Assembly (NCBI GenBank): GCA_965197425.1
Contig: CBDANC010000014.1
Location: forward strand, 128,001-192,000
Direction of reading: 5' to 3'
Source of the DNA: Bdellovibrionales bacterium
Lineage (GTDB): Bacteria > Bdellovibrionota > Bdellovibrionia > Bdellovibrionales > JAUICD01
Length of the DNA: 64,000 bases
The translations under genes were made by a program, and so were the position numbers. The stretch's first letter is position 1; every line of letters begins with the position of its first letter. Shown in pieces: positions 7,788 through 46,173 of the stretch. Under the pieces are notes generated by a model. The model ran no database searches, was not told the DNA's origin, and saw only the letters and a program-made list of their open reading frames with translations.

Positions 7788-8162
7788 ATGAATGTGAAGG
7801 ATGCAAACGATCTATTATCATTAGTGAAACAAAGAAATGATCTGTTTCTACAGTTTAGAAACATTAATGATAAAGAGTTAGAGCAAGTTAGGGGTGGAAA
7901 TTTTTCAAACCTAAAGCAGTTTTACGATAAAAGATCTAGTCTACTTACTAGCGTTAGCAAGTTAGACTCAATTATCAGAGCTTTTTCGAAAAAACAATCC
8001 AAACCAAAACCTGTACAAAAACATGTACGATCAGAATTAATCACTGCTTTAGATAAAAAAGAAGGTCTCATAAAAGAAATTTTAGAACAAGATCTAGAGA
8101 TTATTCACCTGGTAGATGAACACCAATTTAACCTATCTAAAAAGGAAGAAAAAGTCGCCTAA
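7788..8162 (+). CDS. helical protein, possibly FlgN/FliT-like flagellar chaperone
   Basis: 124 aa coiled-coil pattern; family call weak. Confidence 0.4.
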   Translation: MNVKDANDLLSLVKQRNDLFLQFRNINDKELEQVRGGNFSNLKQFYDKRSSLLTSVSKLDSIIRAFSKKQSKPKPVQKHVRSELITALDKKEGLIKEILEQDLEIIHLVDEHQFNLSKKEEKVA

Positions 8163-8343
8163 AGGTCTTCCGAACGAGGCAAATAAGGGAAGCTTTGCTT
8201 TTTGCCGAGTGGTTGCCCAGCTCTAGACACGATGCTGATCCCAATGCTAAAGGTCTTCCCCAACACTGATTGAACATGGCAACAAGTTGGCTCTGCCAAC
8301 TTTTGCCAGGTGAATTACGTTACAACCCCAGCTACTACATGTC
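8161..8343. repeat. dispersed modular hairpin repeat, locus A (2 modules)
   Basis: AAAGGTCTTCC at 8161 and 8249, hairpins, GGTTGCCCAGCTCT; lacks the TCATCAAACTCAT end. Confidence 0.85.
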
Positions 8344-8411
8344 CTCACTGAAACTAACAAATGGACTGGCGTAACTAAAACTAGAAAAGTCCCCAGAATA
8401 AACAATAGTGA

Positions 8412-8501
8412 TGGCGGAGGGAGAGGGATTCGAACCCTCGAAACGGTTGCCCGTTTGCCAGTTTTCAAGACTGGTGCTTTCAACCACTCAGCCATCCCTC
8501 C
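8412..8501 (-). tRNA. tRNA-Ser(TGA)
   Basis: GGAGGGATGGCTGAGTGG; anticodon arm CCAGT-CTTGAAA-ACTGG; long variable arm; GTTCGAATC; encoded CCA. Confidence 0.96.
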
Positions 8502-8541
8502 GCCACAAAATCTAGTTTGGTAAATGAAATTTTTCAAGTAT

Positions 8542-8711
8542 AAAGGTCCATTAGCGAAGCTAAATACATGGGTTGGCGTAACGATTGCACGAAGTGCAAG
8601 TGAAGCCAGAACATGTTTTAGCTGAGCGATTGTTTCTACCAAGGTCTTCCAAGTGAAGGCAAAAATAAGTGGACTTGTTCACTTTTTTTGCCAAACTGGT
8701 TGCCCAGCTCT
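8542..8711. repeat. dispersed modular hairpin repeat, locus B
   Basis: GA-flanked hairpin at about 8554-8628, then AAGGTCTTCC (8641), hairpin, GGTTGCCCAGCTCT. Confidence 0.8.
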
Positions 8712-8768
8712 GTAAGGTTTAATACGACAAGAGTCACTCAAAGGTCCATTAGCAAGGTTAGGAGATGG

Positions 8769-10040
8769 TTAGCTTTTTGAGATAGTCTCTCTACCACCCA
8801 TGTAAGGTCTCAATGCACCTGGTATCAATACAGTACCATCTTCCCTTTGATAATTTTCTAAAATAGCCATTAAAGTTCTGCCAACAGCAAGTCCACTTCC
8901 GTTTAAAGTATGAACAAACTCAGGCTTACTAGTACCTCTTCTAAACCTAATTCCCGCTCTTCTAGATTGAAAATCCAAGCAATTAGAAACAGAAGATATT
9001 TCTCTATACCTACCCTCACTAGGTATCCAAACCTCAATATCATATGTCTTTGAAGCTGCAAAACCAATATCTCCAGAGCACAGAGTAACTACACGAAAGG
9101 GCAATTTAAGTTTTTTTAAAATAACTTCAGCATGAGAAGTCATCAACTCCAAATCACCAAAACTATCCTCTGGCAAACTTAGCTTAACCAACTCAACTTT
9201 ATGAAATTGATGCTGCCTAATAAGACCCTTTGTATCCTTACCATAACTACCAGCCTCAGATCTGAAGCAAGGAGTGAATGCCACAAAAGACATAGGCAAA
9301 TCATCACAAGATAAAATCTTACCAGAATGATAATTGGTAACAGGAACTTCAGCAGTGGGAATTAAATAATAATCTGTATCCTTCAAATGGAATACATCTT
9401 CGACAAACTTAGGAAATTGCCCAGTACCATAAAGTGCTTCACTGTTTACTATGTAAGGGGGGATGGTCTCTAAATAACCATGTTCCTCTGTCTGTATATC
9501 CAACATAAAATTATAAATAGCTCTCTCCAATCTAGCACCTAAGCCATGCAAAGTAACAAACCTAGAACCAGATACTCTAGCAGCCATCTCAAAATCTATA
9601 ATACCAAGCTCTTTTCCCAAAGAAGCATGATCTTTTGGTTTAAACCCCAAATCTTTAATTTCAAAAACCTCTCTCTCTACTCTATTATCATCCTCAGTCC
9701 TGCCTTTTGGAACTGACGAATGACATATATTAGGAAGTGAAGATAACCCCAGGTTAAATCGAGACTCAACTTTAGAAAGCTGCTCTTCAATACCCTTTAT
9801 CTCAGAAGACAACTTCCTCATTGCTACAATGTCAGACGAAGCATCCTCTTTACCTTTTTTCTTTAGAGCAATTTTTTGACTAACCTGATTTCTAAGAGCT
9901 TTTTTTGTCTCTACTTCTAACAGTATCTCCTTTCTCTTATTACATAGAGCCTTGATTGAATCTAATGAACTTACATCCCAACCCCTGTTTTGCAAACAAT
10001 CTCTATATTCCTCACTTAAAACAACATCTGTACTTAACAT
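8769..10040 (-). CDS. serS: seryl-tRNA synthetase
   Basis: LIPTAEVP, CFRSEAGSYG, RQHQFHKVE, HTLNGSGLAVGR. Confidence 0.97.
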   Translation of the reverse strand: MLSTDVVLSEEYRDCLQNRGWDVSSLDSIKALCNKRKEILLEVETKKALRNQVSQKIALKKKGKEDASSDIVAMRKLSSEIKGIEEQLSKVESRFNLGLSSLPNICHSSVPKGRTEDDNRVEREVFEIKDLGFKPKDHASLGKELGIIDFEMAARVSGSRFVTLHGLGARLERAIYNFMLDIQTEEHGYLETIPPYIVNSEALYGTGQFPKFVEDVFHLKDTDYYLIPTAEVPVTNYHSGKILSCDDLPMSFVAFTPCFRSEAGSYGKDTKGLIRQHQFHKVELVKLSLPEDSFGDLELMTSHAEVILKKLKLPFRVVTLCSGDIGFAASKTYDIEVWIPSEGRYREISSVSNCLDFQSRRAGIRFRRGTSKPEFVHTLNGSGLAVGRTLMAILENYQREDGTVLIPGALRPYMGGRETISKS

Positions 10041-18215: not shown

Positions 18216-18838
18216 TCTCTATTAAACTTCCCTATACCAATATCTGTCAAAGGATGCTTGCTTAACTGCTTTATCACCTTAAAAGGTATTGTGATAACAT
18301 CTGCACCTATCATCAAAGACTCCAAGACATGAACTGGACTTCTAACGCTAGCAACTAAAATTTTAGTATTAATAGCATAATTATCAAATATAGTTTTAAT
18401 GTCAGATACTAAGTTCATTCCAACTTCAGAAACATCATCAAGCCTTCCAACAAAAGGAGAAACATAACTAGCGCCAGCCTTAGCACATAAAACCGCCTGG
18501 ACTGCACTAAATACCAGGGTTACATTGGTATCAATTCCCTCAAGGCTTAATCCCTTCACTGCCTTTAAACCATCTAGAGTCATGGGAACTTTGACAACCA
18601 CATTGGGAGCAATTTTAGCAAGCTCCTTGCCTTGTTCGATCATTTGGTCCGCATTGTCACAAGTTACCTCAGCGTTTACAGGACCTGACACTACTGAGGC
18701 TATTTCTGATACAACCTCCGCAAAATCTCTACCAGACTTAGCAACCAAAGTAGGATTAGTTGTTACACCATCCACTAAACCAAACTCTAGAGCCTGCTTA
18801 ATCTCATCTATGTCTGCAGAATCAATAAAAAACTTCAT
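18194..18838 (-). CDS. tal: transaldolase / fructose-6-phosphate aldolase family
   Basis: [31 protein letters not shown]; upstream MRKTLN is repeat-derived. Confidence 0.92.
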
Positions 18839-18841
18839 ATT

Positions 18842-18914
18842 CAAGGTTTTCCTCATTGTTGCCCAGCTCTACACATGTCATCAAACTCATCCCCAAAGGT
18901 CTTCTCAACACTGA
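18842..18914. repeat. dispersed repeat, locus C (near-empty module plus truncated module)
   Basis: AAGGTTTTCC-tcattgttg-CCCAGCTCTACACATGTCATCAAACTCAT; mini-ORF 18890..18822 (-). Confidence 0.85.
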
Positions 18915-18957
18915 CCCCTCCAACAAGGTCTAGTCTAGCACAATGCCAATCTATAAC

Positions 18958-20397
18958 CTAGTTAGAAAACACCAGATCTGGATACACTTTCTTAAGCCTT
19001 TTAAGCCCACCCTCAAAAGCATAAGCCTCTAAACCAGATTCCCTTAGAGCCTGAACCGCCATAGCAGATAAAAAACCTTCGTGACAGTATAAAACATATT
19101 TTTTATCAATACTAAAGTTGGTCATGTCGATATCATCAAGCTCAAGATGTCTCGCAGATTTGATATGACACTTGTTAAAATCGGAAAGAGACTGACAGTC
19201 TATTATATCAAAAGTCTGGTCTAGCTTATCTAAATACATATTTTGGGGTTTTAAATTTATCGAACTTAAAAAATCTTCTTTTTTGTTTTTTATGCATTCA
19301 TCTATCAAACCAAAATCAAACTTTTTCTCTTCTTTTAAAACTGAGTCTAGATCAGGTCTGGAACTAACTTTTCCCTTCACAAGGTCACAATGCTCAGAAA
19401 CCTTCTCACATAACTTTCCAACTCCTAGTTCATAAGACTGATTTACAATATCGATCTTATTCATGCTTACCAATGGCCTTATCACCATTAGATCAGAAAC
19501 ATTTTCAATAACCTTCAAACTTTCAAGAGTTTGTGAGCTGACTTGACCTATAGACTCACCAGTTGCCATTACTTGAATACCCAAGTTAAAACCTACTATA
19601 TTTGCAATTTTGTACATTACTCTCTTTAGCACTATTTGCCTATACCTAGGGCCTACAGACTTAATTAATGCACGAGTAATTGGGTTGAAATTTATTGTAA
19701 TAAATCTGGGGCTATTGGGTTGAAATCTATCCGTTAGTTTTTTGATAATTTGCATCACCTGGAGCCTATAAGATTCATAACCAAAATTAAAAAACAAAAA
19801 ATCACAGTTAATACCCCTTTTCATCAATAAAAAAGCAGCTACTGTAGAATCAAATCCACCAGAATATAAAACCAAAGCTCTGCCCTGAGAAGCCATAGGC
19901 ATTCCTCCAAGACCCTTAACTCTACCAAGTCCAAAATGATAAGTGTTGTTTATGTACTCTACCCTTACCTCTATCTCTGGATTTGTTAAGTCAACTGCTC
20001 TTGCAAAAGGTAAAAGCTTTGAACCTATTGTACAGGCCAGTTCATTTGAACTATACTGACACCCACCAGAAGATTTCTTTACTTTAACCATAAAACTTTT
20101 TTTAGAAATCAAATCCTTAAAAAGCATAAGTGCAGTATTAGATATTTCCTTCATATCTCCCTTAGTTTCCCCCAAAACTTCAAAAATAGAACTTATCCCA
20201 GAAATATCATACAAAAAATCAAACTTAGAATCTGCAAGGATCATAATATGATTAAACCTTTTGTTGAGTTCTAACTTAATGTTCGAAGCTTTAGCTCTTT
20301 TGGAAATGTCAGACATCAAAATATTTATAAGCCTGTTTTTTTCCAAGCTCCCTTTTAAGGTAACCTCTGACGCATATCTAACGATAACTTTTTTCAT
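18958..20397 (-). CDS. thiI: tRNA 4-thiouridine synthase with THUMP and C-terminal rhodanese domains
   Basis: SGGFDS PP-loop, TGESIGQVSSQT, YCHEG; start MKKVIVRY. Confidence 0.9.
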   Translation of the reverse strand: MKKVIVRYASEVTLKGSLEKNRLINILMSDISKRAKASNIKLELNKRFNHIMILADSKFDFLYDISGISSIFEVLGETKGDMKEISNTALMLFKDLISKKSFMVKVKKSSGGCQYSSNELACTIGSKLLPFARAVDLTNPEIEVRVEYINNTYHFGLGRVKGLGGMPMASQGRALVLYSGGFDSTVAAFLLMKRGINCDFLFFNFGYESYRLQVMQIIKKLTDRFQPNSPRFITINFNPITRALIKSVGPRYRQIVLKRVMYKIANIVGFNLGIQVMATGESIGQVSSQTLESLKVIENVSDLMVIRPLVSMNKIDIVNQSYELGVGKLCEKVSEHCDLVKGKVSSRPDLDSVLKEEKKFDFGLIDECIKNKKEDFLSSINLKPQNMYLDKLDQTFDIIDCQSLSDFNKCHIKSARHLELDDIDMTNFSIDKKYVLYCHEGFLSAMAVQALRESGLEAYAFEGGLKRLKKVYPDLVFSN

Positions 20398-20538
20398 AAA
20401 GGTCTTCCTAATGAGGCAAAAAATGAGGAGGCTCTGCCTACTTTTTTTTGCCGAATGGTTGCCCAGCTCTCTACCACGATGCCGATACCCTCCCACAAGG
20501 TCTTCCCCAGCTCTACACGTGTCATCAAACTCATCCCC
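20398..20538. repeat. dispersed repeat, locus D (filled plus empty module)
   Basis: Two AAGGTCTTCC; mini-ORF 20540..20394 (-) bridges the DUF938 stop and the thiI start. Confidence 0.9.
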
Positions 20539-20541
20539 ATA

Positions 20542-21138: not shown

Positions 21139-21370
21139 AAAGGTCTTCCCCAGCATTGATTGAGCCTAGCAAACAAACCGACTTGTTGGTTTTTTGCTAG
21201 GCGAATTACGTTTTGACACAGCCACTTAAAGTCTAAAACTAAACTAAGACTTTTTTCAATAAAGGTGAGGTTAGCGAACAGCAAATAAATCTGGCTTTGC
21301 CAGTTTTTTGCTGTGAGCACCTGTTTCACCAAGTGGTTGCCCAGATCTACACATGTCATCAAACTCATCC
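21139..21370. repeat. dispersed repeat, locus E (two hairpins)
   Basis: Conserved ends; mini-ORF 21368..21135 (-) ends GRPL* in ATGA overlap. Confidence 0.9.
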
Positions 21371-31944: not shown

Positions 31945-31948
31945 TACA

Positions 31949-32141: not shown

Positions 32142-32816
32142 TCATGCAAGTAAAATTTCATCAATTAAAGAATTTATCCTATTACTCACTTCTTTTGCAT
32201 CACCCGCGGCACTTAAATCCCTGTATATACCCAGATCCTTATAGTATTTTTTTAAAGGCAAAGTCTCAGTTTCATACTTATCAAGCCTGGTTAGCACTAC
32301 CTCTTTATCATCGTCAGGCCTCTTATAAAGCTCTCCTGAACAAATGTTGCAAATATCATCTACTACCACAATATTCACACGAAATACAGCCCCACAGTCA
32401 ATACAACATCTTCTACCAGTGAGCCTCTCAAGCAACACTTTATGCTCTAATTTCAAAAAAATAGCAAGCCCAAGCTCCATTTGCCTTTTTTCCATAATTT
32501 CACTCAAACCCTCAGCCTGAGCAAATGTTCTAGGAAAACCATCAAAAACTAAGCCATCACTATCTGATAAATAATCTAAATTTTCATCCAAAAATAAATC
32601 TACCAATTCCAGTACAACCTTATCAGATACATAATCGCCACTCGCTAATCTATTTTTTACCCTAACACCAACACTTGTACTTTCTGCTATATGCTCCCTC
32701 AAAATATTACCAGTCGACACGTGTAACATGCCTCTATTCTTTACCAAAAGCTCAGATTGTGTACCTTTACCAACACCAGGAGGGCCAAATAAAACAACAT
32801 TCAGAGATGCCATCAA
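32142..32816 (-). CDS. adk: adenylate kinase
   Basis: GPPGVGKGTQ, DGFPRT, Cys-type LID. Confidence 0.95.
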   Translation of the reverse strand: MMASLNVVLFGPPGVGKGTQSELLVKNRGMLHVSTGNILREHIAESTSVGVRVKNRLASGDYVSDKVVLELVDLFLDENLDYLSDSDGLVFDGFPRTFAQAEGLSEIMEKRQMELGLAIFLKLEHKVLLERLTGRRCCIDCGAVFRVNIVVVDDICNICSGELYKRPDDDKEVVLTRLDKYETETLPLKKYYKDLGIYRDLSAAGDAKEVSNRINSLIDEILLA

Positions 32817-34129: not shown

Positions 34130-34147
34130 AACTCCACATTAACCAAA

Positions 34148-34606
34148 CTAGCAAGCCCTAGATCTAACAAACTTTATGACCTCTGCCTTACCCCCAGCTT
34201 TTTCTATCAAAGCTATAGCAGGTTTACTAAACTTGTGTGCCTTAACATGCAAAGCCTTCTTAATACCACCATTAGAAAGGACTTTAATAGGGTTCTTACC
34301 ATCCACCAGCTTTGCCTTTAACAAAAGATCAGGAGTTACCTCTGAGTCAAAACTATCCAACGAAGAAAGATAAATTATATTGAACTCTTTTCTAAACACA
34401 TTGGTAAATCCAAACTTAGGTAGTCTCTGCCATATTGGCATCTGACCACCCTCAAATGTCGCAGGAACACCTCCTCCAGAACGAGCCTTCTGACCCTTAT
34501 ACCCCTTAGCCGCAGTAGTTCCCCAACCTGAACCACCACCCCTACCTATTCTTTTTTTTCTACTAAAAGAAGATTTAGGGCTACTCAAATTACTTAAAAT
34601 AGACAT
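34148..34606 (-). CDS. rplO: 50S ribosomal protein L15
   Basis: FEGGQMP..RLPKFGF. Confidence 0.96.
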   Translation of the reverse strand: MSILSNLSSPKSSFSRKKRIGRGGGSGWGTTAAKGYKGQKARSGGGVPATFEGGQMPIWQRLPKFGFTNVFRKEFNIIYLSSLDSFDSEVTPDLLLKAKLVDGKNPIKVLSNGGIKKALHVKAHKFSKPAIALIEKAGGKAEVIKFVRSRAC

Positions 34607-34632
34607 ACGAACACCTAACTATTATTACTCAT

Positions 34633-34848
34633 CTAAGATGTCACCCTTTCAACTTGTAACCAATTTTGCATCATCATAATCTTTCCCCTCTCAGAAGGAA
34701 CATCATTAACCAAACGAGTATGTCCTATTTTTCTTAAACCCAAACACCTTATGGCCTCTTTCTGCTTTTTGGTAAGACCTATCGTACTTTTTTTTAAAGT
34801 AATCTTTAGCTTTGAACTTTTGATCTTTTTAGATTTAGCCTTACTCAT
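34633..34848 (-). CDS. rpmD: 50S ribosomal protein L30
   Basis: LKITLKKSTIG, LGLRKI; position. Confidence 0.92.
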   Translation of the reverse strand: MSKAKSKKIKSSKLKITLKKSTIGLTKKQKEAIRCLGLRKIGHTRLVNDVPSERGKIMMMQNWLQVERVTS

Positions 34849-35366
34849 TATTGTTTTCCTTGTTTAGTATCCTTTTCTTGATCATTAACCTTACCTTGTT
34901 CATCACCCCTTTCTTCTTTAATCGACTTTTGGTTTTTTAATTGCTTCAGACCCTCTAAAGTTGCCCTTACTACTGCATGCGGGTTTCTTGTACCTACACA
35001 CTTAGTTAAAATATTTTTAACTCCTACAACTTCCAATACAGCCCTAACTGCTCCACCGGCAATTACCCCTGTTCCAGGCATTGCAGGAAACATAACCACC
35101 TTAGCAGCTCCATATTTACCTATAACCTCATGGGGGATAGTACCCCCATCTATCAAAACCTTATGGAACTTATTTTTGGCAACTCTGCCAGCCTTGCTTA
35201 CAGCAACAGGTACCTCGCCTGCTTTGCCTAAACCAAGCCCAATTTCTCCATTACCATTACCAACTACAACCAAAGCAGAAAAAGAAAATCTTCTACCACC
35301 TTTTACAACCTTGGCTACCCTGTTAATACTAACAACCCTTTCTTCTAAATTAGAGGTGCTATCCAA
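34848..35366 (-). CDS. rpsE: 30S ribosomal protein S5
   Basis: [16 protein letters not shown]. Confidence 0.97.
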
Positions 35367-35378
35367 AAATATCTCCTA

Positions 35379-35747
35379 TCAAAAATTGAGTCCGCCCTCT
35401 CTTGCAGCATCAGCAAGAGCTTTAATTTTGCCATGATACAAATAACCACTTCTGTCGAAAACTACACTCTTTATTTTGTTGTCTAAAGCTCTTTTTGCTA
35501 TCAACTTACCAATCTCTTTAGCAACATCCTTATTACAACTTTTTGGTTTTAGTTTAAGTGAACTAGCAGAAACCAAAATCTTTCTGTCAACATCATTAAC
35601 TACCTGAGCGTATATGTTTTTATTGGACCTAAACACACACAGTCTAGGTCTATCACTAGTACCCTCAATACTCTTTCTTATTCTCACTTTCTTTTTTAAT
35701 CTAGATACAACTTTGTCAGATGTTCTAGTTTTAAATCTTAATCTCAT
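35379..35747 (-). CDS. rplR: 50S ribosomal protein L18
   Basis: [20 protein letters not shown]. Confidence 0.96.
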
Positions 35748-35788
35748 AACCTACCTACAAACCGTAATCCACTTAAAAGTTTCTACCC

Positions 35789-36340
35789 TTATTTTGCACC
35801 TGATTTTCCAGCCTTTCTTATAATAACTTCATCCACATATTTTATTCCTTTCCCTAAGTAAGGTTCAGGCGGTCTAAATGATCTTATTTTGGCAGAAAAC
35901 TCACCAACTACACCTTTATCAGGCCCTTTTACATGTAAAGTTGTCTGCTTTTCCACCGCAACCTCAACATCTTTTGGTAACTCCAAAACAACAGGATGAG
36001 AATAGCCTATACTTAACTCCAAGTTCCTACCTTTAACATTAGCTCTGTAACCTACTCCTTTTAACTCCAAACTCTTCTTCCAACCAACCTCTACACCTAC
36101 AACAGCGTTGTTAGCCAAGGATCTAATTAAACCATGCAAAGCTCTGGTTTTTTTCTCATCATTTTGCCTAGTAAAAACCAATTTATCCTGGGCAATATCA
36201 GCATCTATCAAAGAAGGTAGTTTCACCTTCTGCACATACTTACCGCCCTTTATGGTTAATACCCTACCCTCTTCAGTATTCTGAACTTCAACCTTAACTG
36301 AGCTTTTTATTAAGATAGGTTTTTTTCCAATCCTAGACAT
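35789..36340 (-). CDS. rplF: 50S ribosomal protein L6
   Basis: MSRIGK, PEPYLGKGI. Confidence 0.97.
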   Translation of the reverse strand: MSRIGKKPILIKSSVKVEVQNTEEGRVLTIKGGKYVQKVKLPSLIDADIAQDKLVFTRQNDEKKTRALHGLIRSLANNAVVGVEVGWKKSLELKGVGYRANVKGRNLELSIGYSHPVVLELPKDVEVAVEKQTTLHVKGPDKGVVGEFSAKIRSFRPPEPYLGKGIKYVDEVIIRKAGKSGAK

Positions 36341-36341
36341 C

Positions 36342-36731
36342 TCACCAAACCTTTAGCATTACTTCGCCACCAACTTTATTATCTTTAGCTTCCCTGTCAG
36401 ACATAATGCCCTTATTAGTACTCAATATAGATATTCCATACCCAGATCTAACTTCTGGAATATTATCTACATCTACATATCTTCTAAGCCCAGGCCTACT
36501 TACCCTCCTAATCACATCAATCAAAGGCTTTCCTTCTTTAGTGTATTTTAAATAAATTCTTATAAAGCCCTGTTTGTTGTCCTTTGCAACCCTGAAGTCC
36601 CTTATAAAACCCTTTTGCTTTAAAACACGAGCTATACCTTCCCTCACTCTAGAGCCAGGGGTATCAACTTGGTGATGACCCGCCATCTGAGCATTTCTAA
36701 TTATTGTTATAAAGTTTCCAATTGTATCCAT
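36342..36731 (-). CDS. rpsH: 30S ribosomal protein S8
   Basis: MDTIG..IRNA, SRPGLR; upstream extension is repeat-derived. Confidence 0.96.
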   Translation of the reverse strand: MDTIGNFITIIRNAQMAGHHQVDTPGSRVREGIARVLKQKGFIRDFRVAKDNKQGFIRIYLKYTKEGKPLIDVIRRVSRPGLRRYVDVDNIPEVRSGYGISILSTNKGIMSDREAKDNKVGGEVMLKVW

Positions 36732-36890
36732 TAAGGTCTTCCTAATCCAACACTGATTGAGCATGACGAATAATCTGGCTTCGCCAGATTTTTGTCATAC
36801 AAGTTACGTTGCCCCACAGTAATTTTAAAACCAAAACTTTTCAAAGCCTGGTGGTTGCCCACCTTTATACATGTCATCAAACTCACCTCC
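36732..36890. repeat. dispersed repeat, locus G (rpsN-rpsH)
   Basis: SD GGAGGT; mini-ORF 36877..36731 (-) ends in TAATG overlap. Confidence 0.9.
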
Positions 36891-36898
36891 ATACTAAA

Positions 36899-37084
36899 CT
36901 ACCAACTTGCCTTTATCACACCAGGAATAAGTCCATTAGATGCGTTCTTTCTGAAACAAATTCTACAAAGAGAAAACTTTCTTATAAAACTTCTAGCCCT
37001 TCCGCAAGAACTACATCTACTGTAACCTCTTACAGCAAATTTAGGCTTTCTCTTTGCCTTTGCTATCATAGATTTTTTAGCCAA
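36899..37084 (-). CDS. rpsN: 30S ribosomal protein S14, zinc-binding type (TTG start)
   Basis: [23 protein letters not shown]. Confidence 0.95.
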
Positions 37085-37112
37085 ACTATCTACCCTCCCA
37101 AAAGTTAAAACC

Positions 37113-37176
37113 AAGGCCTTCTATTTTTTTTGCAGGGTGGTTGCCCAGCTTTACATGTGTCATATAACTACCTTCC
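37113..37176. repeat. dispersed repeat, locus H (internally deleted; rplE-rpsN)
   Basis: AAGGCCTTC...GGTTGCCCAGCT; mini-ORF 37163..37086 (-) stops 1 nt before the rpsN TTG. Confidence 0.8.
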
Positions 37177-37185
37177 TTTCACTTA

Positions 37186-37725
37186 TCATTTTCTAAAAGG
37201 CATACCTAAAGCCTGCAATAACAAATGGGCCTCTTTGTCCGATTTGGCGGTTGTACAAACTGTAATGTTCATTCCTCTTATTTGATCCGCTTTATCGTAA
37301 TTAATTTCTGGAAACACAATTTGCTCTTTCAAACCCATGTTATAGTTACCTCTTCCATCAAAACCCTTTGGTGATATACCACGAAAATCCCTAACTCTAG
37401 GCAACACAATAGAAACCAGTCTATCCAAAAAAGCCCACATCTTTTCCCTTCTCAAAGTTACATAAGCCCCCATAGGCAAATGTTTTCTTAATTTAAAGTT
37501 GGCCACAGCTTTTTTAGATCTAGCAATCATTGCCCCTTGACCCGTTATATCAGTGAGCTCACCTGCAATAACACCAGCAACTTTGGCATTTTTAACAGCT
37601 TCTCTTCCAGCACAAACACTGATAACTATCTTCTCTAAACGAGGAGTTTGCATAATGGATTTATGACCTAAATCCTTAAAAAGCTTACCCCTAACCTCAG
37701 ATGTATATAAATCAAACAACCTCAT
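37186..37725 (-). CDS. rplE: 50S ribosomal protein L5
   Basis: PRVRDFRG, FDGRGNY. Confidence 0.97.
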   Translation of the reverse strand: MRLFDLYTSEVRGKLFKDLGHKSIMQTPRLEKIVISVCAGREAVKNAKVAGVIAGELTDITGQGAMIARSKKAVANFKLRKHLPMGAYVTLRREKMWAFLDRLVSIVLPRVRDFRGISPKGFDGRGNYNMGLKEQIVFPEINYDKADQIRGMNITVCTTAKSDKEAHLLLQALGMPFRK

Positions 37726-37727
37726 CT

Positions 37728-38096
37728 CTAAACTACCTCAGGTGCGACAGAAATTATTCTCATAAATTTTTTAGCTCTCAACTCTCTGGCAACAGGGCCA
37801 AAAATTCTAGTACCTATAGGTTCCTTGTTGTTGTTTACAAGCACAACAGCATTTTCATCAAACCGAACATAGCTACCATCCTGTCTTCTGGTTTTGTTAA
37901 TAGTTCTCACCAGTACAGCCTTTGCCTTCTCACCTTTTTTGACTTTAGATCTAGGAGCAGCTTCCTTTATACTAACCACAATAATATCACCCACTCTAGC
38001 AACCCTTCTTCTAGTTCCACCAAGTACTTTTATGCACATGACTTCCTTTGCACCAGAGTTATCAGAAACTTTAATTCTAGACTGAACTTGTATCAT
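37728..38096 (-). CDS. rplN: 50S ribosomal protein L14
   Basis: [18 protein letters not shown]. Confidence 0.97.
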
Positions 38097-38356
38097 TAAG
38101 CCCTCGAACCTTTAGCTAAAATTTTGGCCATCTTCCAGCACTTTGTTTTGCTGATAGGCCTTGTTTCGTATATCAAAACTTTGTCTCCTAACTCTGCCTG
38201 ATTTTTTTCATCATGAGCTTTAAATTTACATTTCTTTTTTATAAACTTACCAAACCTAGGATGCTTAACACTCCTAACTACCTCAACAGTGACAGTCTTA
38301 TCCATCTTGGTGCTTATAACATGCCCTGTGACAGAATTAATTTTTTTCTTTTCCAA
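38096..38356 (-). CDS. rpsQ: 30S ribosomal protein S17
   Basis: [14 protein letters not shown]. Confidence 0.96.
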
Positions 38357-38564
38357 CAGATATCTCCTTTGAGCCTGTTTTACTCAAACTACTCAAAACT
38401 GTATTGATCCTAGCAATGTCCCTTCTCAAGATCCTAATCTCAAGTGGATTCCCAGCTTGTTTCATATGACTTTTCATCTTTATACCAAAAATTTTCTCAG
38501 CCAAAACATTACGCTTAGACAACAACTCCTTTCTAGGTAAATCTTTTATATCCTTAAATTTCAT
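38337..38564 (-). CDS. rpmC: 50S ribosomal protein L29
   Basis: IRILRRDIARINT; position. Confidence 0.93.
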   Translation of the reverse strand: MKFKDIKDLPRKELLSKRNVLAEKIFGIKMKSHMKQAGNPLEIRILRRDIARINTVLSSLSKTGSKEISVGKEKN

Positions 38565-38566
38565 AT

Positions 38567-38830
38567 AAAGGCCTTCCTAATGAGGCTAAAAACAAGTGGA
38601 CTTGTTCACTTTTTTTAGCCGAGTGGTTGTCCAGCTCTACACATGTCATCAAACTCATCCTCAAGGCCTTCCCCAACATTGATTGAATCTGGCAACAAGT
38701 TGGCTCTGCCGACTTTTGCCAGGTGAATTACGTTTTGACACAATCACTTTGAAACCAAAACATCTTTTGACCGAACGGTTGCCCAGCTCTACACATGTCA
38801 TCAAACTCATTTCCATCAAGGCCTTCCTCA
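38567..38830. repeat. dispersed repeat, locus I (2 modules plus a stub; rplP-rpmC)
   Basis: Three AAGGCCTTCC; mini-ORFs 38831..38661 and 38658..38554 (-). Confidence 0.92.
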
Positions 38831-38836
38831 TACTTT

Positions 38837-39244
38837 CTAAGCTCTCATTAAAAACTTTGTCTTAATAGGTAGTTTGTTTCCGGCCAACCTAAAAGCTTCC
38901 TTAGCTTGATCAGCAGTCACACCAGCCATTTCAAAAATAACAGTTCCAGGTTTTACATTTGCAACATAATACTCAGGACTTCCTTTACCACTACCCATTC
39001 TTGTTTCAGCAGGTTTTTTAGTAGTTGGAGTGTGAGGAAAAATTCTAATCCAAACTTTTCCACCACGCTTCACAGACCTACTTATAGCAATTCTACTTGC
39101 CTCTATCTGACGAGATGTAAGCTTCCCACCTGACAGAGCTTGAAGGCCAAACTCACCAAAATCAATGTCATTGCAAGACCAGGCTTTGCCTTTCACATCA
39201 TACCTAAACTGCTTTCTACGTTTAAGACGTTTTGGGCTAAGCAT
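38837..39244 (-). CDS. rplP: 50S ribosomal protein L16
   Basis: [14 protein letters not shown]. Confidence 0.97.
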
Positions 39245-39917
39245 TTGATACACCTCCACCTAAAACATCACTAGCTTTTGACTTTTGATTTATTATGTCA
39301 CCAGTATAAATCCAAACCTTAACTCCAATTACTCCGTAAGTAGTTTTAGCTTCCCTTGTTCCATAATCTATATCGGCCCTTAATGTGTGAAGCGGCACAC
39401 TCTTTTCTGTGTACCACTCTGTTCTAGCTATCTCTGCACCATCAAGTCTACCAGCAACCTGAACCTTGATACCTTTAACTCCACCCCTAATAGCAGACTG
39501 AAGCGCCTTTTTTAAAGCACGCCTCCAAGAAACTCGTTTCTCCAACTGTACTGCTATATTTTCTGCCACAAGCCTTGCATCAGTATCAGGTTTTCTTATT
39601 TCCTGTATGTTCACAAAAACTTCGTTCTTGGTCATTTTGTTTATTTCATCTCTTAGAGAATCAATCCCAACACCCTTTTTCCCAATCACAAATCCAGGTC
39701 TTGCTGAAGACACAATTATCTTGATCTTATTAGCTGCTCTCTCTATCTCCACCTTGGAAACCCCAGCATTCTTGAGTTTCTTAGAAACATATTCTCTTAA
39801 CTTAAAATCCTCATGTAAGTTTTTTGCAAAATGCTTTTTTTGCTTAACATACCAACGAGAATCCCAAGTCTTGTTTATTCCAACCCTAAACCCTATAGGG
39901 TTAACCTTTTGTCCCAC
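39237..39917 (-). CDS. rpsC: 30S ribosomal protein S3
   Basis: [21 protein letters not shown]. Confidence 0.97.
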
Positions 39918-40251
39918 TATGCCTCTCCTCTAATACAATTTTAATGTGACTGGTTTTTTTTCTTATAAGTGACGCCCTTCCTCTCGCTCTAGGCATTTGT
40001 CTCTTCAAGTGCGGTCCTTGATCTACATTTATCGCCTTCACATATAAACTACCTACATCAATAGACTGCTTATACTCTGCATTTGCTATTGCAGAATCCA
40101 ACAAAGTCCTAATCAACCTAGCAGGCTTTCTATCAATCATAGATAGCCTACTTATAGCCTCAGAAACAGGCCTACCTCTAACAGCATCAGCTACAAGCCT
40201 GGCTTTCATTGAGCCCATTCTAACAAATTTTAAACTAGCACTTACACGCAT
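39901..40251 (-). CDS. rplV: 50S ribosomal protein L22
   Basis: [18 protein letters not shown]. Confidence 0.96.
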
Positions 40252-40253
40252 CT

Positions 40254-40345
40254 TAAGGCCTTCCGAATGAGGCAAAAAATAAGGGGGCTTTGCCTACTTT
40301 TTTTGCCGAATGGTTGCCCAGCTCTATATGTGTCATATAATTCAC
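40254..40345. repeat. dispersed repeat, locus J (rpsS-rplV)
   Basis: Mini-ORF 40336..40253 (-) ends TAA-G-ATG. Confidence 0.9.
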
Positions 40346-40366
40346 TCTCACTAACTCCTCATAAAC

Positions 40367-40645
40367 CTATTTTTTAGCAGCCTTCCTATCCCCAGAATGT
40401 CCCTTAAATATCCTAGTTGGAGAAAATTCACCAAACTTATGCCCTATCATGTTTTCTGTAACATAAACAGGAACAAACTTTTTTCCATTGTGTACCGCAA
40501 ATGTCAAACCAACAGCATCTGGTATAATTGTTGATCTTCTTGACCAGGTCTTAATCACCTTTCTGCTATTTGCCTTTTTTGCCTCATCAATCTTTTTTAA
40601 AAGATGATCATCAACAAATGGTCCTTTTTTAATAGAACGACCCAT
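40367..40645 (-). CDS. rpsS: 30S ribosomal protein S19
   Basis: KTWSRRS, GHKFGEF. Confidence 0.97.
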
Positions 40646-40667
40646 AAATTACCTCTATTATTCTCCC

Positions 40668-41501
40668 TTACCTCTTCTTTTTCTTCTTTCTTGAAACTAT
40701 ATACTTATCTGTAGATTTATTATTTCTGGTTTTATGACCCTTACAAGGTTTGCCCCAAGGAGTTCTAGGATGATTACCCTTACCCTTTCCTTCACCACCA
40801 CCCATAGGGTGATCAATTGGGTTTTGACACATCCCTCTTACATGAGGCCTCTTACCCAACCACCTTGTTCTACCAGCCTTACCGATACTTAAGTTTTCTC
40901 TTTCAACATTACCAACTTGCCCTACTGTAGCCCTGCAGCTAGCCAGAACTTTTCTAACTTCACCAGAAGGAAGTTTGATCAACACATAACCTTTTTCCTT
41001 AGCTACCAGATTTGCACAAACCCCAGCACTTCTAGCTAATTGACCGCCCTTACCAGGACGCATCTCTACATTGTGAATCATTGAACCAAGTGGAATTTTA
41101 TCCAACTTCATGCAATTGCCAGGTTTTATATCAACACCCTTGTCAGAAGAAACAATTGCATCCCCAACTTTTAGATTAACAGGAGATATAATATAACCCT
41201 TGCTACCATCCTGATACTGAATCAAAGATACGCGAGAAGAACGGTTTGGATCATACTCAACCGACTTAACAGTGGCAGGCACATCTGTTTTAGTTCTATA
41301 AAAATCAACGAGCCTATAGCGCCTTTTATGACCACCACCCCTAAACCTTACAGTGATGTTACCTCTATTATTTCTTCCAGCCTTGCTAAGTTTTCTAGAC
41401 AAAAGAGATTTCTCTGGATTTTTTGAAGTAATTTCAGAAAAATCAAATCCTGTCATAAACCTTCTAGAAGAAGTAATTGGTTTGTATTTTTTTAACGCCA
41501 T
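40668..41501 (-). CDS. rplB: 50S ribosomal protein L2
   Basis: [16 protein letters not shown]. Confidence 0.97.
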
Positions 41502-41508
41502 CTAAAAA

Positions 41509-41799
41509 CTAAACTCCCTCAAAAACCCCAATTTTTTCACCTTCTCTCAACTTAACTAATGCCTTTTTTAAATAGACAACCCTACTTCCGCTGCCTGCTC
41601 TTAGAGACTTCTTTTTAGATCTTCTAAAAATAGAAGTTCTCACATTTAAAACCTTCACAGAAAAAATCTGCTCTACAGCCTTTTTGATTTGAGGCTTTTT
41701 AGCCCGCCTATCAACCTCAAATGAATATACATTCATCGACTGATCAAGCGAACTTTTCTCAGTAATAATTGGCTTTTTTAAAATTTTATACACTAACAA
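41509..41799 (-). CDS. rplW: 50S ribosomal protein L23
   Basis: PIITEKS, KKALVKL. Confidence 0.95.
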   Translation of the reverse strand: MLVYKILKKPIITEKSSLDQSMNVYSFEVDRRAKKPQIKKAVEQIFSVKVLNVRTSIFRRSKKKSLRAGSGSRVVYLKKALVKLREGEKIGVFEGV

Positions 41800-41857
41800 C
41801 CTCTATATTCTCTATATTTAATAACTATATTTACCAGGCAAACTAAGCTTCAATCCG

Positions 41858-42535
41858 CTAAGAACATCTCTTTATGATGCTATCTACTGCATTTTTTGAA
41901 ACAATCACACGGTTATATTTTAGTAAGTCATACACATTAAGCCCATCTACAGAATAATACCTGATATTACGTATATTTTTAGAAGCTCTCTTAAATGTAT
42001 GGTCCACATCTTTATCTATTAAAACTGCCTTCTCACTACCCATATTCTTTAATTTAAGAGCAACCTCTTTGGTTTTTGGTTTATCTATTTTTATTTCATT
42101 CACAACATGTAATCTATCACTCTCAAGCAAGTGAGATAATGCAGATACAAGACCAAGCCTCTTTATTTTTTTAGGCAAAGTATAGGAATAATCTCTGGGA
42201 GTAGGACCAAATGTAACACCACCACCTTCCATAAGAGGAGATCTTATAGAACCCTGTCTTGCATTCCCTGTTCCCTTTTGTCTAAACGGTTTCTTACCCC
42301 CACCAGATACTTCACTTCTATCTTTTGTCTTGTGACATCCTCTGCGTCTTTTGGCTAACTGCCACTTAACCACTGAGTGCATAACAGGCTTATTAACCCT
42401 GGCTCCAAATATATCCACAGGTAACTTTACACTATCTACCTTTTTTTTATTCCAATCCAAAACATCCACTTGTATGGACTGCGCCTTATTATTTTTTTTG
42501 GTTGCCTTATCTTTTTTAGTTACCTTATCAGCCAT
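41858..42535 (-). CDS. rplD: 50S ribosomal protein L4
   Basis: KPFRQKGTGNARQGS. Confidence 0.97.
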   Translation of the reverse strand: MADKVTKKDKATKKNNKAQSIQVDVLDWNKKKVDSVKLPVDIFGARVNKPVMHSVVKWQLAKRRRGCHKTKDRSEVSGGGKKPFRQKGTGNARQGSIRSPLMEGGGVTFGPTPRDYSYTLPKKIKRLGLVSALSHLLESDRLHVVNEIKIDKPKTKEVALKLKNMGSEKAVLIDKDVDHTFKRASKNIRNIRYYSVDGLNVYDLLKYNRVIVSKNAVDSIIKRCS

Positions 42536-42556
42536 ATAAATTCCCTAAATCAAGTC

Positions 42557-43357
42557 CTAAGCACTAGCCTGATTTGTCAAATTAACCTGTTTTTCTAATT
42601 TAACCAGAGTGTTTCTGGCTCCAGGGATTCCACCTTTTACTAACAAAACATTGTCATCCGGTAAAACTTCTGCAACTTTGACATTTCTTACTGTAACTGT
42701 CTTAAAACCAAACCTACCTGGCATGCTTTTTCCCGGCAATACCCTACCTGGTTCTTCACACATTCCAACGGATCCTGGTTTTCTGTGAAACCTAGATCCA
42801 TGAGAAGCAGGGCCCCCACTAAATCCATACCTTTTCACAGTACCAGTAAACCCTCTACCCTTGGATTTGGAGGTTATTTTTACAATATCCCCCTTCTTTA
42901 AACTATCTATTGATACCTTTGCTCCTGGCTCGATACCATCCAGGGAGCTACACCTTATCTCTTTTGCAAATTTAACTGCATTAGTAAGTTTAGATTTTTT
43001 TAAATGACCAGCTTCTGACTTTTTCAAATTGGATTTTTTACCAGATACAATTTGAACAGCACTATAACCATCTTTTTCGTCAGACTTAACCTGAGAGATC
43101 ACCCAGTCATCAAACTTTAAAACAGTAACCGGCACCATGGCACCTGCAGAATCATATACAACAGACATACCTAGCTTTACCGCATAAAGACCATTTAATT
43201 GCACGGTTTTAGGCCCTACCTTAGATTTTGGCTCTTCAGATTTTTCGGATTTTGATTTTGCAGAATCAGTATCTTCCGACTCAGATACTTGAGAACCTTC
43301 TGTGGGGTCTTGATAGCCCTCTTTATTATCTTCAGATGTTTTGCTCTCCAAATTCAT
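42557..43357 (-). CDS. rplC: 50S ribosomal protein L3 with N-terminal extension
   Basis: KLGM, DGYSAVQ, SKGRGF, GPASHGS. Confidence 0.96.
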   Translation of the reverse strand: MNLESKTSEDNKEGYQDPTEGSQVSESEDTDSAKSKSEKSEEPKSKVGPKTVQLNGLYAVKLGMSVVYDSAGAMVPVTVLKFDDWVISQVKSDEKDGYSAVQIVSGKKSNLKKSEAGHLKKSKLTNAVKFAKEIRCSSLDGIEPGAKVSIDSLKKGDIVKITSKSKGRGFTGTVKRYGFSGGPASHGSRFHRKPGSVGMCEEPGRVLPGKSMPGRFGFKTVTVRNVKVAEVLPDDNVLLVKGGIPGARNTLVKLEKQVNLTNQASA

Positions 43358-43367
43358 AAATACTCCA

Positions 43368-43688
43368 CTAAACCACAGATAATTTTATTTCAACATCTAT
43401 ACCAGCAGATAGATCCAGCTTCATCAGCTGATCCACAGTCTGTTGAGTAGGTTCTAAAATATCCAAAAGCCTCTTGTGCGTTCTGATTTCGAACTGTTCC
43501 CTAGATTTTTTGTCCACATGAGGAGATCTCAATACTGTGTATCTATTGATGTTTGTAGGTAAAGCAACAGGCCCTGATACACCAGCACCAGTCCTTTTAA
43601 CTATATCCACGATATCCCTAGTGGATCTGTCCAATAACCTATGATCAAAGGCTCTTAGACGTATTCTTATTTTCTGACTCTGTTGCAT
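43368..43688 (-). CDS. rpsJ: 30S ribosomal protein S10
   Basis: [14 protein letters not shown]. Confidence 0.97.
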
Positions 43689-43958
43689 ACCAAACCCAGA
43701 GGGGAAAACAAACCCCTACTATTCTTCCTAAAAACAATTTCCAAAGTTAAAACAAGCCCCAGACCAGAGGCAAGCCACCTATGGATACTAAGACCTTTAA
43801 AACACCAAAATCAATCTATATACCAAACAAACAACCTATTAAACCAAACCCATTTGCACAAAAATCACCCAAATGTACATCAAGTCCTATCAATACAACG
43901 CCGTAATAATCAAACCAATGCACAACATTAGCTCACATGGTGATGTGAGCTGGGGCGG

Positions 43959-43988
43959 AGTATAGGCTTAAGATTATAAATTGGTCAA
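43959..43988 (-). promoter_or_regulatory. putative S10-operon sigma70 promoter
   Basis: TTGACC-18-TATACT, then GC-rich discriminator CCGCCCC and a 9-bp hairpin AGCTCACAT/ATGTGAGCT. Confidence 0.6.
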
Positions 43989-44002
43989 TAAAAAATTTCT
44001 GC

Positions 44003-46054
44003 TCAAGCTCCAAACAGTATTTGAGACTCTAATTTCTCCGGCAGTCTTTCGAAATGGCTTACTTTCATTGAAAAGCTTCCTCTACCAGATGTAAGCGATC
44101 TCAAGGTCGTAGCGTATCCAAACACCTCGCTTACTGGCACATAGGCATTTATTACCTGCATATTACCTACCTCCTCCACATTGTTGATTCTTCCTCTCTT
44201 GGAGTTGAGATCCCCCACCACAGATCCTAAAAAATTTTTCGGCACTGTTACTTCCATACTGGACACTGGTTCCAGTAAATGTGGGTTTCCAAGTTCCATG
44301 GCTTTTTTAGTAGCCCTAGAAGCTGCAACTTTCAGAGCAAGTTCTGTTGGCACAAAATCGCTATCCTCTCTTGAATCCAATAAAGTTACAGTGGTAGAAA
44401 TCACTTTATTTCCAGCCAATGATCCATTTTCTAAAGCCTCCTCTATACCTTGTACTGCAAATGAGGCTCCGTCTTTAGTAAACTTACTGTTGTTTACTAT
44501 TTTGTTTTTATCTTCATTATTTGCCTCTACCTTTACCTCAACTGTAGCCATGTGATTTTCTGTACCTATAAGACGCTCAAAATGATATTTAGAAGTAGCC
44601 TTAGTAGTAACACATTCTCTATATGAAACTTGCGGCTTACCTCTGTTGACCTTTACTCCAAACTCCCTATCCAATCTATCTAAGACAATTTCTATGTGAA
44701 GTTCTCCCATTCCAAAAACAAGCATTTGCCCTGTATCTTGATTTTCTTTAAAGGAAAAAGAAGGATCTTCATCTTGAATTTTTTTTAAGCATTCACCTAA
44801 TTTTTTTTCATCATTTGAGGTTTTAGGCTCTATAGCCTGAGAGATAACTGGCTCTGGAAAACCAATTGGCTCTAGCAATACATGAGTTTTTCGGTCACAC
44901 AGAGTGTCTCCAGTTTTTGTCCACTTCAACCCAACAACAGCCCCTATATCTCCAGCCTTTAGCACATCCGTCTCTGTCCTTGAGTTTGCATGCATTTTCA
45001 AAATTTTGGCTACTCGTTCTTTTCTATTGGAAGTTGTGTTTTCCAAAGCCTGCCCTACTTTTAAAATTCCGGAATATACTCTCAAATAAGTCAACATCCC
45101 AGCGAATGGATCAACTTGTAGTTTAAATGCCAAAGAAACCACTGGTTCACTGTATGAGGCTTTACACAAAACTTCTTTTCCATTTTTATTTAATCCCGAA
45201 ACACCTTTCACATCCAAGGGGCTTGGCAGATAATCTGTAACAGCATCTAATACAAGTTGAACTGACTTGTTTTTTAGTGCACTTCCACAAAATACAGGGA
45301 ACACCTTTTGTTTAATAGTTCCAGCTCTTATTGCGGCCTTAATTTGACAAGCTTTTATTGGAGATTCCGATAAATATGCCTCCATTAACTCATTATCAAA
45401 TTCAGAAACTTGCTCCAGCAGATCATTTTTCAACTGCTCTGCCTTTTTAACATACTGAGAAGGAATGTCTTTGTACTCTGGTTTTAAATCGACCCCATCT
45501 CCTTCCCATACCACTAATTTACCTGCTACCACATCCAAAACACCTTTGAAGTTATCTTCACTTCCAACAGGCCAGTGTAAGACGGCAGGAGTAACACACA
45601 ATTTTTCTTTTATTGATTCAAGGCACATTTCATAGTCAGCACCTAGTCTATCCATTTTATTTATAAAACACATCCTAGGTACATTGTACTTATCTGCCTG
45701 ATACCAAACGGTTTCAGATTGAGGTTCAACTCCATTTACAGCATCGAATACACACAATGCACCATCTAACACTCTAAGCGATCTCTCCACTTCTAGGGTA
45801 AAATCAACATGCCCCGGAGTATCTATTAGGTTGATATGGTGTGTTTTCCAAGCGCAAGTAGTTGCAGCAGAGGTAATAGTGATTCCTCTCTCTTGCTCCT
45901 GTTGCATCCAATCCATTACCGTGTTTCCGTAATGAACCTCCCCTACCTTATGACTTTTGCCGGTGTAATATAAAATTCTCTCTGTTAAAGTAGTCTTTCC
46001 GGCATCTATATGTGCCATTATTCCAAGATTTCTAATTTTACTTAAATCATCCAT
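44003..46054 (-). CDS. fusA: elongation factor G family, divergent (EF-G2-like)
   Basis: AHIDAGKTT, RGITI, DTPGH, NKMD; altered domain IV. Confidence 0.9.
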   Translation of the reverse strand: MDDLSKIRNLGIMAHIDAGKTTLTERILYYTGKSHKVGEVHYGNTVMDWMQQEQERGITITSAATTCAWKTHHINLIDTPGHVDFTLEVERSLRVLDGALCVFDAVNGVEPQSETVWYQADKYNVPRMCFINKMDRLGADYEMCLESIKEKLCVTPAVLHWPVGSEDNFKGVLDVVAGKLVVWEGDGVDLKPEYKDIPSQYVKKAEQLKNDLLEQVSEFDNELMEAYLSESPIKACQIKAAIRAGTIKQKVFPVFCGSALKNKSVQLVLDAVTDYLPSPLDVKGVSGLNKNGKEVLCKASYSEPVVSLAFKLQVDPFAGMLTYLRVYSGILKVGQALENTTSNRKERVAKILKMHANSRTETDVLKAGDIGAVVGLKWTKTGDTLCDRKTHVLLEPIGFPEPVISQAIEPKTSNDEKKLGECLKKIQDEDPSFSFKENQDTGQMLVFGMGELHIEIVLDRLDREFGVKVNRGKPQVSYRECVTTKATSKYHFERLIGTENHMATVEVKVEANNEDKNKIVNNSKFTKDGASFAVQGIEEALENGSLAGNKVISTTVTLLDSREDSDFVPTELALKVAASRATKKAMELGNPHLLEPVSSMEVTVPKNFLGSVVGDLNSKRGRINNVEEVGNMQVINAYVPVSEVFGYATTLRSLTSGRGSFSMKVSHFERLPEKLESQILFGA

Positions 46055-46173
46055 AAAGGTCTCAGCAAGAACTGAAAGTACCTTGGCGAAATACAGCGCG
46101 AAGCACAAGTGTAGCCAAGATACTCTCAGTATCAGAGTTGCCCAGCTCTACACATGTCATCAAACTCATTCCC
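46055..46173. repeat. dispersed repeat, locus K (bioY-fusA), different internal hairpin
   Basis: GTTGCCCAGCTCTACACATGTCATCAAACTCAT; mini-ORF 46175..46062 (-). Confidence 0.88.

Follow-up and report, generated by a model that had tools for sequence, protein, structure and literature searches.

The 64,000-nt window analysed here (C14:128001-192000 in the 1.6-Mb, 99% complete assembly of a Bdellovibrionales bacterium, G000) contains eleven copies of a genome-wide family of gene-less, modular hairpin insertions, which are absent from orthologous sites, stack in tandem and possess one fixed end that in part of the family stands at an exact distance from the stop or start codon of a neighbouring gene. 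A homologous family occurs in the sole same-genus genome (G001, about 73% nucleotide identity, 93% complete). We propose, at a probability of roughly 0.6, that these insertions spread by single-stranded transposition and are tolerated in operons as relays, in which short predicted open reading frames (ORFs) would pass ribosomes across the insert to the next gene.

Module anatomy and the family in a sister species

The element is read on the − strand, the strand on which the genes flanking nine of the loci run. In this direction a module consists of a head, the core GCTGGGCAAC, a variable hairpin body and the fixed end GAAGACC-TT, which also occurs as CTCACC-TT and GAGACC-TT. The original prediction, made from the letters of the window alone, had described eleven uniformly oriented loci with a left end AAGGYCTTCC and a 34-nt right end. 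The left end is real, with 13 exact matches on the + strand and one on the − strand, the latter at 31655 within a coding gene, where 200 shuffles average 0.2 matches and never exceed 3, and all eleven loci were found in one orientation, at 8162, 8641, ~18845, 20399, 21140, 30897, 36733, ~37113, 38568, 40255 and ~46056. The right end also exists, and a repeat finder grouped it in the window into a 51-nt family of 12 copies with 63–100% identity, but it is only one of four head types: it corresponds to head A, which contains ATG AGT TTG ATG ACA, and the copies at 8161 and 8641 carry other heads. The uniform orientation holds within the window but not genome-wide, where both strands are used.

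Iterative BLAST yielded 213 repeated intervals in G000, of which 28 without any hallmark motif, mostly four-helix-bundle genes and heptamer arrays, were excluded before counting. The family thus defined comprises 185 loci and 35,192 bp, with four heads (about 80 copies of B, 37 of A, 25 of D and 18 of C) and several bodies. The fixed end is retained in 150 loci and a recognisable far-end head in 86; modules stack head to tail and nest, so that 73 of the 185 loci hold two to five end motifs, and the two ends of a module are dissimilar, that is, terminal inverted repeats are absent. The loci lie in co-oriented (72), anti-oriented (37), divergent (35) or convergent (36) contexts, inside genes (3) or at contig ends (2). 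Among 106 last modules the median nearest-neighbour identity is 92% and just two have an identical twin, so most copies are not brand new. Most apical hairpin loops have 3 or 2 nt, a size that points, tentatively, to folding as DNA and not as RNA; the + strand folds better than the − strand under both RNA and DNA parameters, in G000 and G001 alike.

In G001 there are 125 matches to a head motif of its own; behind it stand first GTTGGGCAAC or GTTGCACAAC, then a long hairpin and finally GAAG(A/G)(C/G)CCTT, and the core and end stand in the same order and near-identical sequence as in the G000 family; BLAST between the two families gave no match. G001 counts were made with strict filters, a looser locus list having included 42 false in-gene matches. 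In 43 aligned copies of the G001 hairpin, both partners vary in 16 of the 22 predicted pairs, and pairing holds in 96.5% of cells, a level reached in none of 500 shuffles and nowhere near approached by a slid control. This covariation shows a maintained stem rather than independent events, the copies being related by descent. The G001 family shares the stop-codon habit described below and has neither head A nor the start-codon habit.

In wider searches, BLAST found the family in 0 of 40 relatives, and a pattern search among relatives rose above background only in G000 and G001. An 18-mer scan of 185,579 GTDB species gave 29 single matches, none extending past the motif, where 34.7 were expected by chance; viral sequences gave 76 single matches, none similar to the element library, and two JGI metagenome scans gave 0. 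Two genomes of another genus in the same family, G002 and G004, have modular hairpin repeats of their own, of a different kind, in ribosomal protein (r-protein) spacers. Those of G002 (L236:6505-9384) number 11 copies across three r-protein spacers, and their unit, AAAGGTCC...TTGCCCA, follows the order seen on the + strand of the G000 family, a likeness of order only; in G004 (L235:3230-11237) the repeat is dispersed, and one copy type is stacked with a 49-nt duplicated gene end.

Empty sites and landing positions of the fixed end

The window loci are empty at their orthologous sites in G001. As had been predicted, five of them occupy r-protein spacers (rpsK-rpsD, rpsN-rpsH, rplE-rpsN, rplP-rpmC and rpsS-rplV), which measure 101–277 nt in G000 against 5, −1, 65, 5 and −1 nt in G001, and 2–16 nt in G003. 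Across 704 spacers syntenic between G000 and G001, 75 are filled only in G000, 3 only in G001, 5 in both and 621 in neither. In contigs of related strains, joint 19098-19335 of L225 omits a 236-nt element in its entirety; this allele, in which 5 other letters replace the element, comes from runs X3 and X4 of two studies, and at the rpsD site X3 and X4 carry a different first module, so that module content there varies between strains. In the r-protein region no empty allele was found among the 15 of 66 joints listed, and joint 18862-18942, considered as an element absence, was rejected as a tandem repeat inside a gene. Empty orthologous sites in G001, together with the cleanly empty L225 site seen in two studies' runs, show that the repeat family is mobile. 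The predicted non-autonomous, mobile and modular character is borne out, and an Rfam search of the window matched only two tRNAs and no repeat or RNA family.

Gene starts and stops, called with our own hexamer-based caller rather than a standard tool, were used to place the 150 fixed ends. Forty-one lie 0–8 bases from the stop of the gene running into them (16 at +1 and 19 at +6 or +7), and 22 lie 2–7 bases before a start codon, 14 of them at +3. These offsets exceed motif-matched nulls, which leave out selection against promoter insertions (stop+1, 16/79 versus 4.7%; stop+6/7, 19/45 versus 4.5%; start+3, 14/22 versus 19.8%). The genes next to fixed ends are mostly full length against their G001 orthologues and match them to the end; the neighbouring codons are therefore ancestral. 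In the window, the claim that eight left ends sit just before a start codon was confirmed, at 3–6 nt after the CC of the end, and the genes behind them are tal, thiI, the DUF938 gene, rpsD, rpsH, rpmC, rplV and fusA; the copy at 8161, by correction, adjoins a stop codon (TAA, 8160-8162). Translation-initiation regions, which the original prediction took for the target or for the only place where the element is tolerated, are not the main target: 22 of the 150 ends adjoin starts, 41 stops and 87 neither.

In G001, 27 of 104 ends are at stops and 1 of 104 is at a start, a difference in the start habit from G000 with p=7.5e-5. The stop habit is therefore common to both species and the start habit is new in the G000 species. 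Orientation tracks local genes and not the replichore: after controlling for gene direction, the replichore comparison suggested at the outset gave no bias (27 versus 19, p=0.30), and in co-oriented spacers one orientation is favoured (72 versus 37, p=0.001). The flank past the end reads T(T/G/A)(A/G) in most copies and is not fixed.

Predicted relay reading frames in operons

Operon copies carry a predicted ORF together with a putative ribosome-binding site, which likely pass ribosomes across the insert, a feature that had been overlooked and that may make such copies tolerable. Head A is found at 14 of 22 start-abutting loci against 15 of 128 others, and outside the window at 5 of 14 against 13 of 126 (p=0.019). 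The element does supply the purine-rich site that had been noticed before the ATG: AGGA, GGGGA or GAGG occurs in 17 of 21 start-abutting ends against 24 of 99 others. Outside the window a word of the Shine–Dalgarno (SD) type is present in 11 of 14 start-abutting ends against 24 of 97, the enrichment recurs within each head class, and the 16S tail of G000 is the standard anti-SD. Genome-wide, an ORF that spans the insert, or a chain of two such ORFs, is present in 15 of 16 start-abutting copies in tight co-oriented spacers and in 26 of 118 others; relative to the other co-oriented copies the relay ORF is seen in 15 of 16 against 15 of 38 (p=2e-4).

Each of the nine window copies that precede a gene contains an ORF, of 22–86 codons, that terminates from 7 nt before to 17 nt after the next ATG, with ATGA overlaps at thiI, the DUF938 gene and rpsD and a TAATG overlap at rpsH; at thiI, rpsH, fusA and rpmC the ORF starts 0–6 nt after the upstream stop. 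The longest putative relay mini-ORF (86 codons, 30892-31152, without a Pfam match) lies between rpsK and rpsD, where it follows an AGGAG, spans two head-A modules (30897-31160, the first differing in X3 and X4) and overlaps rpsD by ATGA; the G001 spacer is 5 nt. A head-A element between rpsN and rpsH (36733-36895), at a place where the G001 genes overlap by 1 nt, holds a 53-codon ORF (36892-36731) with the TAATG overlap, and a degenerate head-A module between rplE and rpsN (37113-37175) holds a 25-codon ORF (37163-37086) ending 1 nt before the rpsN start. Between rplP and rpmC, two head-A modules (38568-38831) contain chained ORFs of 56 codons (38831-38661) and 34 codons (38658-38554), and the head-A module between rpsS and rplV (40255-40352) contains one of 32 codons (40351-40253) ending 1 nt before the rplV start. 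The head-A module with a three-way body between bioY and fusA (46056-46175) carries a 37-codon ORF (46175-46062) that opens immediately behind the bioY stop codon and leaves 7 nt to the ATG of fusA.

Outside the r-protein genes, a truncated tandem element before the transaldolase gene tal (18843-18933, with head A at 18873-18889) carries a putative 22-codon relay mini-ORF (18822-18890) that stops 17 nt inside tal. The DUF938-thiI spacer is occupied by an element with heads A and B (20399-20540), in which a putative 48-codon mini-ORF (20394-20540) begins 1 nt past the DUF938 stop and overlaps the thiI start by ATGA, and the composite element before the DUF938 gene (21140-21374) has a 77-codon ORF (21368-21135) with an ATGA overlap at its end. 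The two remaining window copies, like all those above, are on the − strand: a two-module element (8160-8349; an H2 body, then head B and hairpin), whose fixed end adjoins the stop codon (TAA) of the + strand ORF 7788-8162 and whose site is empty in G001, and an element between serS and tRNA-Ser (8543-8749), made of a head C and hairpin module (end at 8643) and a second body ending at 8545, again empty in G001. An element lies within 150 bp of 12 of the 35 tRNA or tmRNA genes of G000, the one at window 8415-8501 included.

Routes of movement and likeness to known repeats

We suggest that the family probably moves as a folded single-stranded copy handled by some enzyme, for which the fixed end would be the defined end and the head end would be ragged. 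The insertion target would be a short T-rich word (TT-T-A or TT-T-ATG as read along the module strand), and no or few bases would be duplicated. Head A would have originated in the G000 lineage, its TTATG junction both matching start codons and bringing a new start, so that an insertion at an ATG would yield a mini-cistron coupled at both ends, as for mycobacterial interspersed repetitive units (MIRUs; reportedly the subject of Supply et al. 1997). Operon insertions lacking a relay would be removed by purifying selection, and those that persist would likely do so through the ATG-bearing head and the SD-like end, which could hand ribosomes on to the next gene.

Several observations weigh against this proposal. 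Most fixed ends (87 of 150) adjoin neither a stop nor a start. The clean empty allele is a single one among the 15 of 64 joints listed; joint 9584-9710 (X3 and X5) omits another element, with unknown letters in between. The head A junction itself reads TTATG, and matching to start codons could give the pattern without selection; moreover, this single window contributes eight or nine of the start-abutting head-A copies, which may not count as independent cases. Non-abutting last modules also have an open relay frame in 56 of 86 cases, compared with 9 of 10 for abutting head-A modules, so that selection on frame openness alone is not significant (p=0.16), and the fixed end yields a stop codon or fuses in frame whichever frame is read. 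Because the module is intrinsically open and its end stops or fuses in every frame, part of the relay signal is built in and not selected. Last, no mobiliser was found in searches that covered eight protein families and a Y1 profile, and left out other DDE transposases, serine recombinases and Cas1.

Those searches included the check for an HUH or tyrosine recombinase gene that the original prediction had called for, and it came out negative. Neither G000 nor G001 matched Y1_Tnp (PF01797), Y2_Tnp (PF04986), Rep_trans (PF02486), tyrosine recombinase (PF00589), reverse transcriptase (PF00078), IS110 (PF02371), the IS630-type DDE_3 (PF13358) or TopIB (PF01028), and a Y1 profile built from 20 relatives' proteins matched no six-frame ORF of either genome. 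No candidate mobiliser emerged from multi-copy protein families, from genes flanked by the element on both sides, from a scan for HUH motifs, or from 135 less-conserved shared soluble proteins read by eye. YhgA-like (Transposase_31) proteins were rejected as the mobiliser, the G000 matches being only on C4, a likely contaminant. About 24 such genes (Transposase_31/Rpn; e.g. L074:13124-14218, L085, L116, L118) are present in G001, three of them interrupted by the G001 element. G000 and G001 also have no recognisable XerC or XerD, the other three family members having 2–7 tyrosine recombinase matches.

A tentative variant of the proposal is that the element is transposase-free and is set by cell machinery at the edges of translated DNA (1 or 6–7 bases from a stop, 3 from a start), a portable start-SD-stop relay having been gained in one species, where it would have opened the most conserved operons to invasion.

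It is unlikely, although several traits would fit, that the elements are non-autonomous HUH or rolling-circle derivatives of insertion sequences (IS200/IS605, IS91, RAYT or Rep_trans-like) with a transposase that has gone missing or that visits on a transient element, the offsets then reflecting a T-rich word plus selection. Such an origin accords with the lack of terminal inverted repeats and of a fixed-length, fixed-register target duplication (p=0.76), with one exact and one ragged end, head-to-tail stacks and 3-nt and 2-nt loops, and with the frequency of Y1 genes in the order (30 of 41 genomes). Against it stand the missing Y1, Y2 and Rep_trans matches, also with the relatives' profile, the finding that end and core motifs beside relatives' Y1 genes formed no element, the absence of a replichore bias and the stop+6/7 peak above its motif-matched null.

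Spread by host enzymes, in which the single type IA topoisomerase (TopA) or short-homology repair would copy hairpins into single-stranded DNA at gene ends, appears improbable. Both genomes hold large families without a detected mobiliser and one TopA each, and short variable duplications are seen in a minority of copies (p=0.0017 for the longest shared run). Among 74 junctions, 6 match their own flank over at least 6 bases (1.7 expected), and at rpsD and C12:203702 the match reaches 8–10 bases. The same reading draws on the insertions in YhgA-like genes of G001, at which 15–42 target bases were lost, and on the presence of different repeats in the same operons of other family members. TopA cuts with a C four bases before the cut, which does not hold at the one clean empty site, and a G at the mirror position is found in only 27–34% of flanks; TopIB is absent, as noted. 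The view that the element is a domesticated regulatory signal (a terminator after stops, an attenuator or leader before starts) spread by gene conversion can point to a hairpin followed by a T-run directly past stops at the 41 ends, to the orientation favoured in co-oriented spacers and to the strain differences at rpsD, but it is largely refuted because the orthologous sites are empty, in G001 and G003 alike, in operons that are otherwise normal, and further by elements that interrupt G001 genes, by presence polymorphism between strains and by promoter and terminator scans at chance level (for terminators in 28000-47000, 1 element among 14 hits, 10.8 expected).

Among known repeats, MIRUs measure 40–100 bp and have tetranucleotide direct repeats (in the accessible part of PMC3184786), and their insertion at start codons couples an ORF within the unit to the gene at −4 spacing (excerpt of PMC12548453). 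As far as these excerpts describe them, the G000 family is MIRU-like in comprising short dispersed operon repeats with internal inverted repeats, start-codon insertion and a coupled predicted ORF, and in being absent from relatives. The start-codon trait appears in 15 of 16 start-abutting operon copies, but that class makes up 22 of 150 ends; the family differs in its 41 ends at stops, in its four heads and at least five swappable bodies, with lengths up to about 690 nt, in lacking a constant tetranucleotide direct repeat in G000 and in a relay habit that is a lineage-specific gain relative to the sister species, and the likeness is one of description. BOX elements, in the portion of PMC3049150 at hand, overlap the stop codon of a gene without truncating it in 36 of 58 cases that overlap a coding sequence, and encode ORFs. 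With them the family shares composite, modular, structured intergenic repeats of varying module number that look parasitic, as well as overlap with gene 3′ ends (41 of 150 in G000, 27 of 104 in G001). BOX combines fixed boxA and boxC ends with tandem boxB, whereas in G000 whole head-to-end modules repeat (73 of 185 loci), and the BOX ORFs are reported, in the same excerpt, without a good SD, for which the start-abutting G000 copies are enriched.

Like the repetitive extragenic palindromic (REP), BIME and REPIN sequences, as the partial text of PMC8266576 presents them, the family is made of high-copy, imperfect, mosaic, extragenic hairpins without a fixed target duplication. Unlike REP sequences it has no conserved GTAG foot, its stems being bounded by GGCAAC and GAAGACC and GTAG varying among heads, and unlike REPINs it shows no alternating inverted pairs, consists of 70–130-nt head-to-tail modules and occurs in two genomes in which no RAYT was found. 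Rickettsia palindromic elements (RPEs) are hairpin repeats readable as protein. An RPE-like trait is a 66-nt sub-module that is in frame in 5 of 19 four-helix-bundle genes, along with two head-A ORFs that fuse in frame, but the family is intergenic, with only 3 of 185 loci within called genes; of the REP/REPIN/RPE assignment originally offered, the hairpin-rich character thus survives and both the REPIN identity and the RPE habit fall away. The gene in question (~97 aa, PF05635) has 19 copies on C6 and C12-C15 of G000 (e.g. L225:7752-8045), many flanked by heptamer tandem arrays; the 66-nt insertion is exact, and its sequence is also nested within dozens of repeat modules (about 55 motif matches). 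The in-frame head-A ORFs run into the downstream gene at C6:11505 and at C13:253077, the second of which looks like hemB, and are possibly repeat-derived N-terminal extensions. A classical DDE miniature inverted-repeat transposable element was rejected (dissimilar ends, no fixed duplication, no IS630-type DDE_3), as was an integron attC array (no PF00589 in G000 or G001, and AAC and GTT do not bracket the stem in both species).

Other features were recorded in passing. The window also holds tandem paralogous secreted proteins (5140-7440), two tandem sensor-like paralogues of 882–883 aa (55872-61486) and a SWIB-like protein with a Lys/Arg-rich, histone-like N terminus (63075-63587). Four G000 contigs are likely contaminants and carry no copy of the repeat: C1 and C4 repeat genes of the main contigs, with identities of about 55%, C10 looks phage-like, and C11 bears another r-protein operon together with an IS1634-like gene and one IS200-type end. 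Two sets of CRISPR-like repeats of ~36 nt, in 36 and 29 copies, are present in G001.

Together, these results establish a real, mobile and undescribed mosaic repeat of the BOX/MIRU kind; the listings returned by literature searches hold no description of it. New are the exact offsets from stop codons and the comparison with a sister species, by which the spread into operon start codons is linked to a single gained module. BOX-, MIRU- and BIME-like mosaics raise two questions, their mode of movement and their tolerance inside essential operons, and the present pair of 1.6-Mb genomes isolates each of them: the two families share their ends and the stop habit, neither genome has a recognisable mobiliser, and only the species with the ATG-bearing head has colonised the starts of rpsD, rpsH, rpmC, rplV, fusA and rpoC. 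The search for the enzyme is narrowed to about 980 shared protein families or a visiting element, and the 20–90-codon 'genes' in these spacers should be annotated with caution, being repeat-derived. If the host machinery does set the element, the pair would amount to a natural before-and-after experiment on how a MIRU-like element originates and moves.

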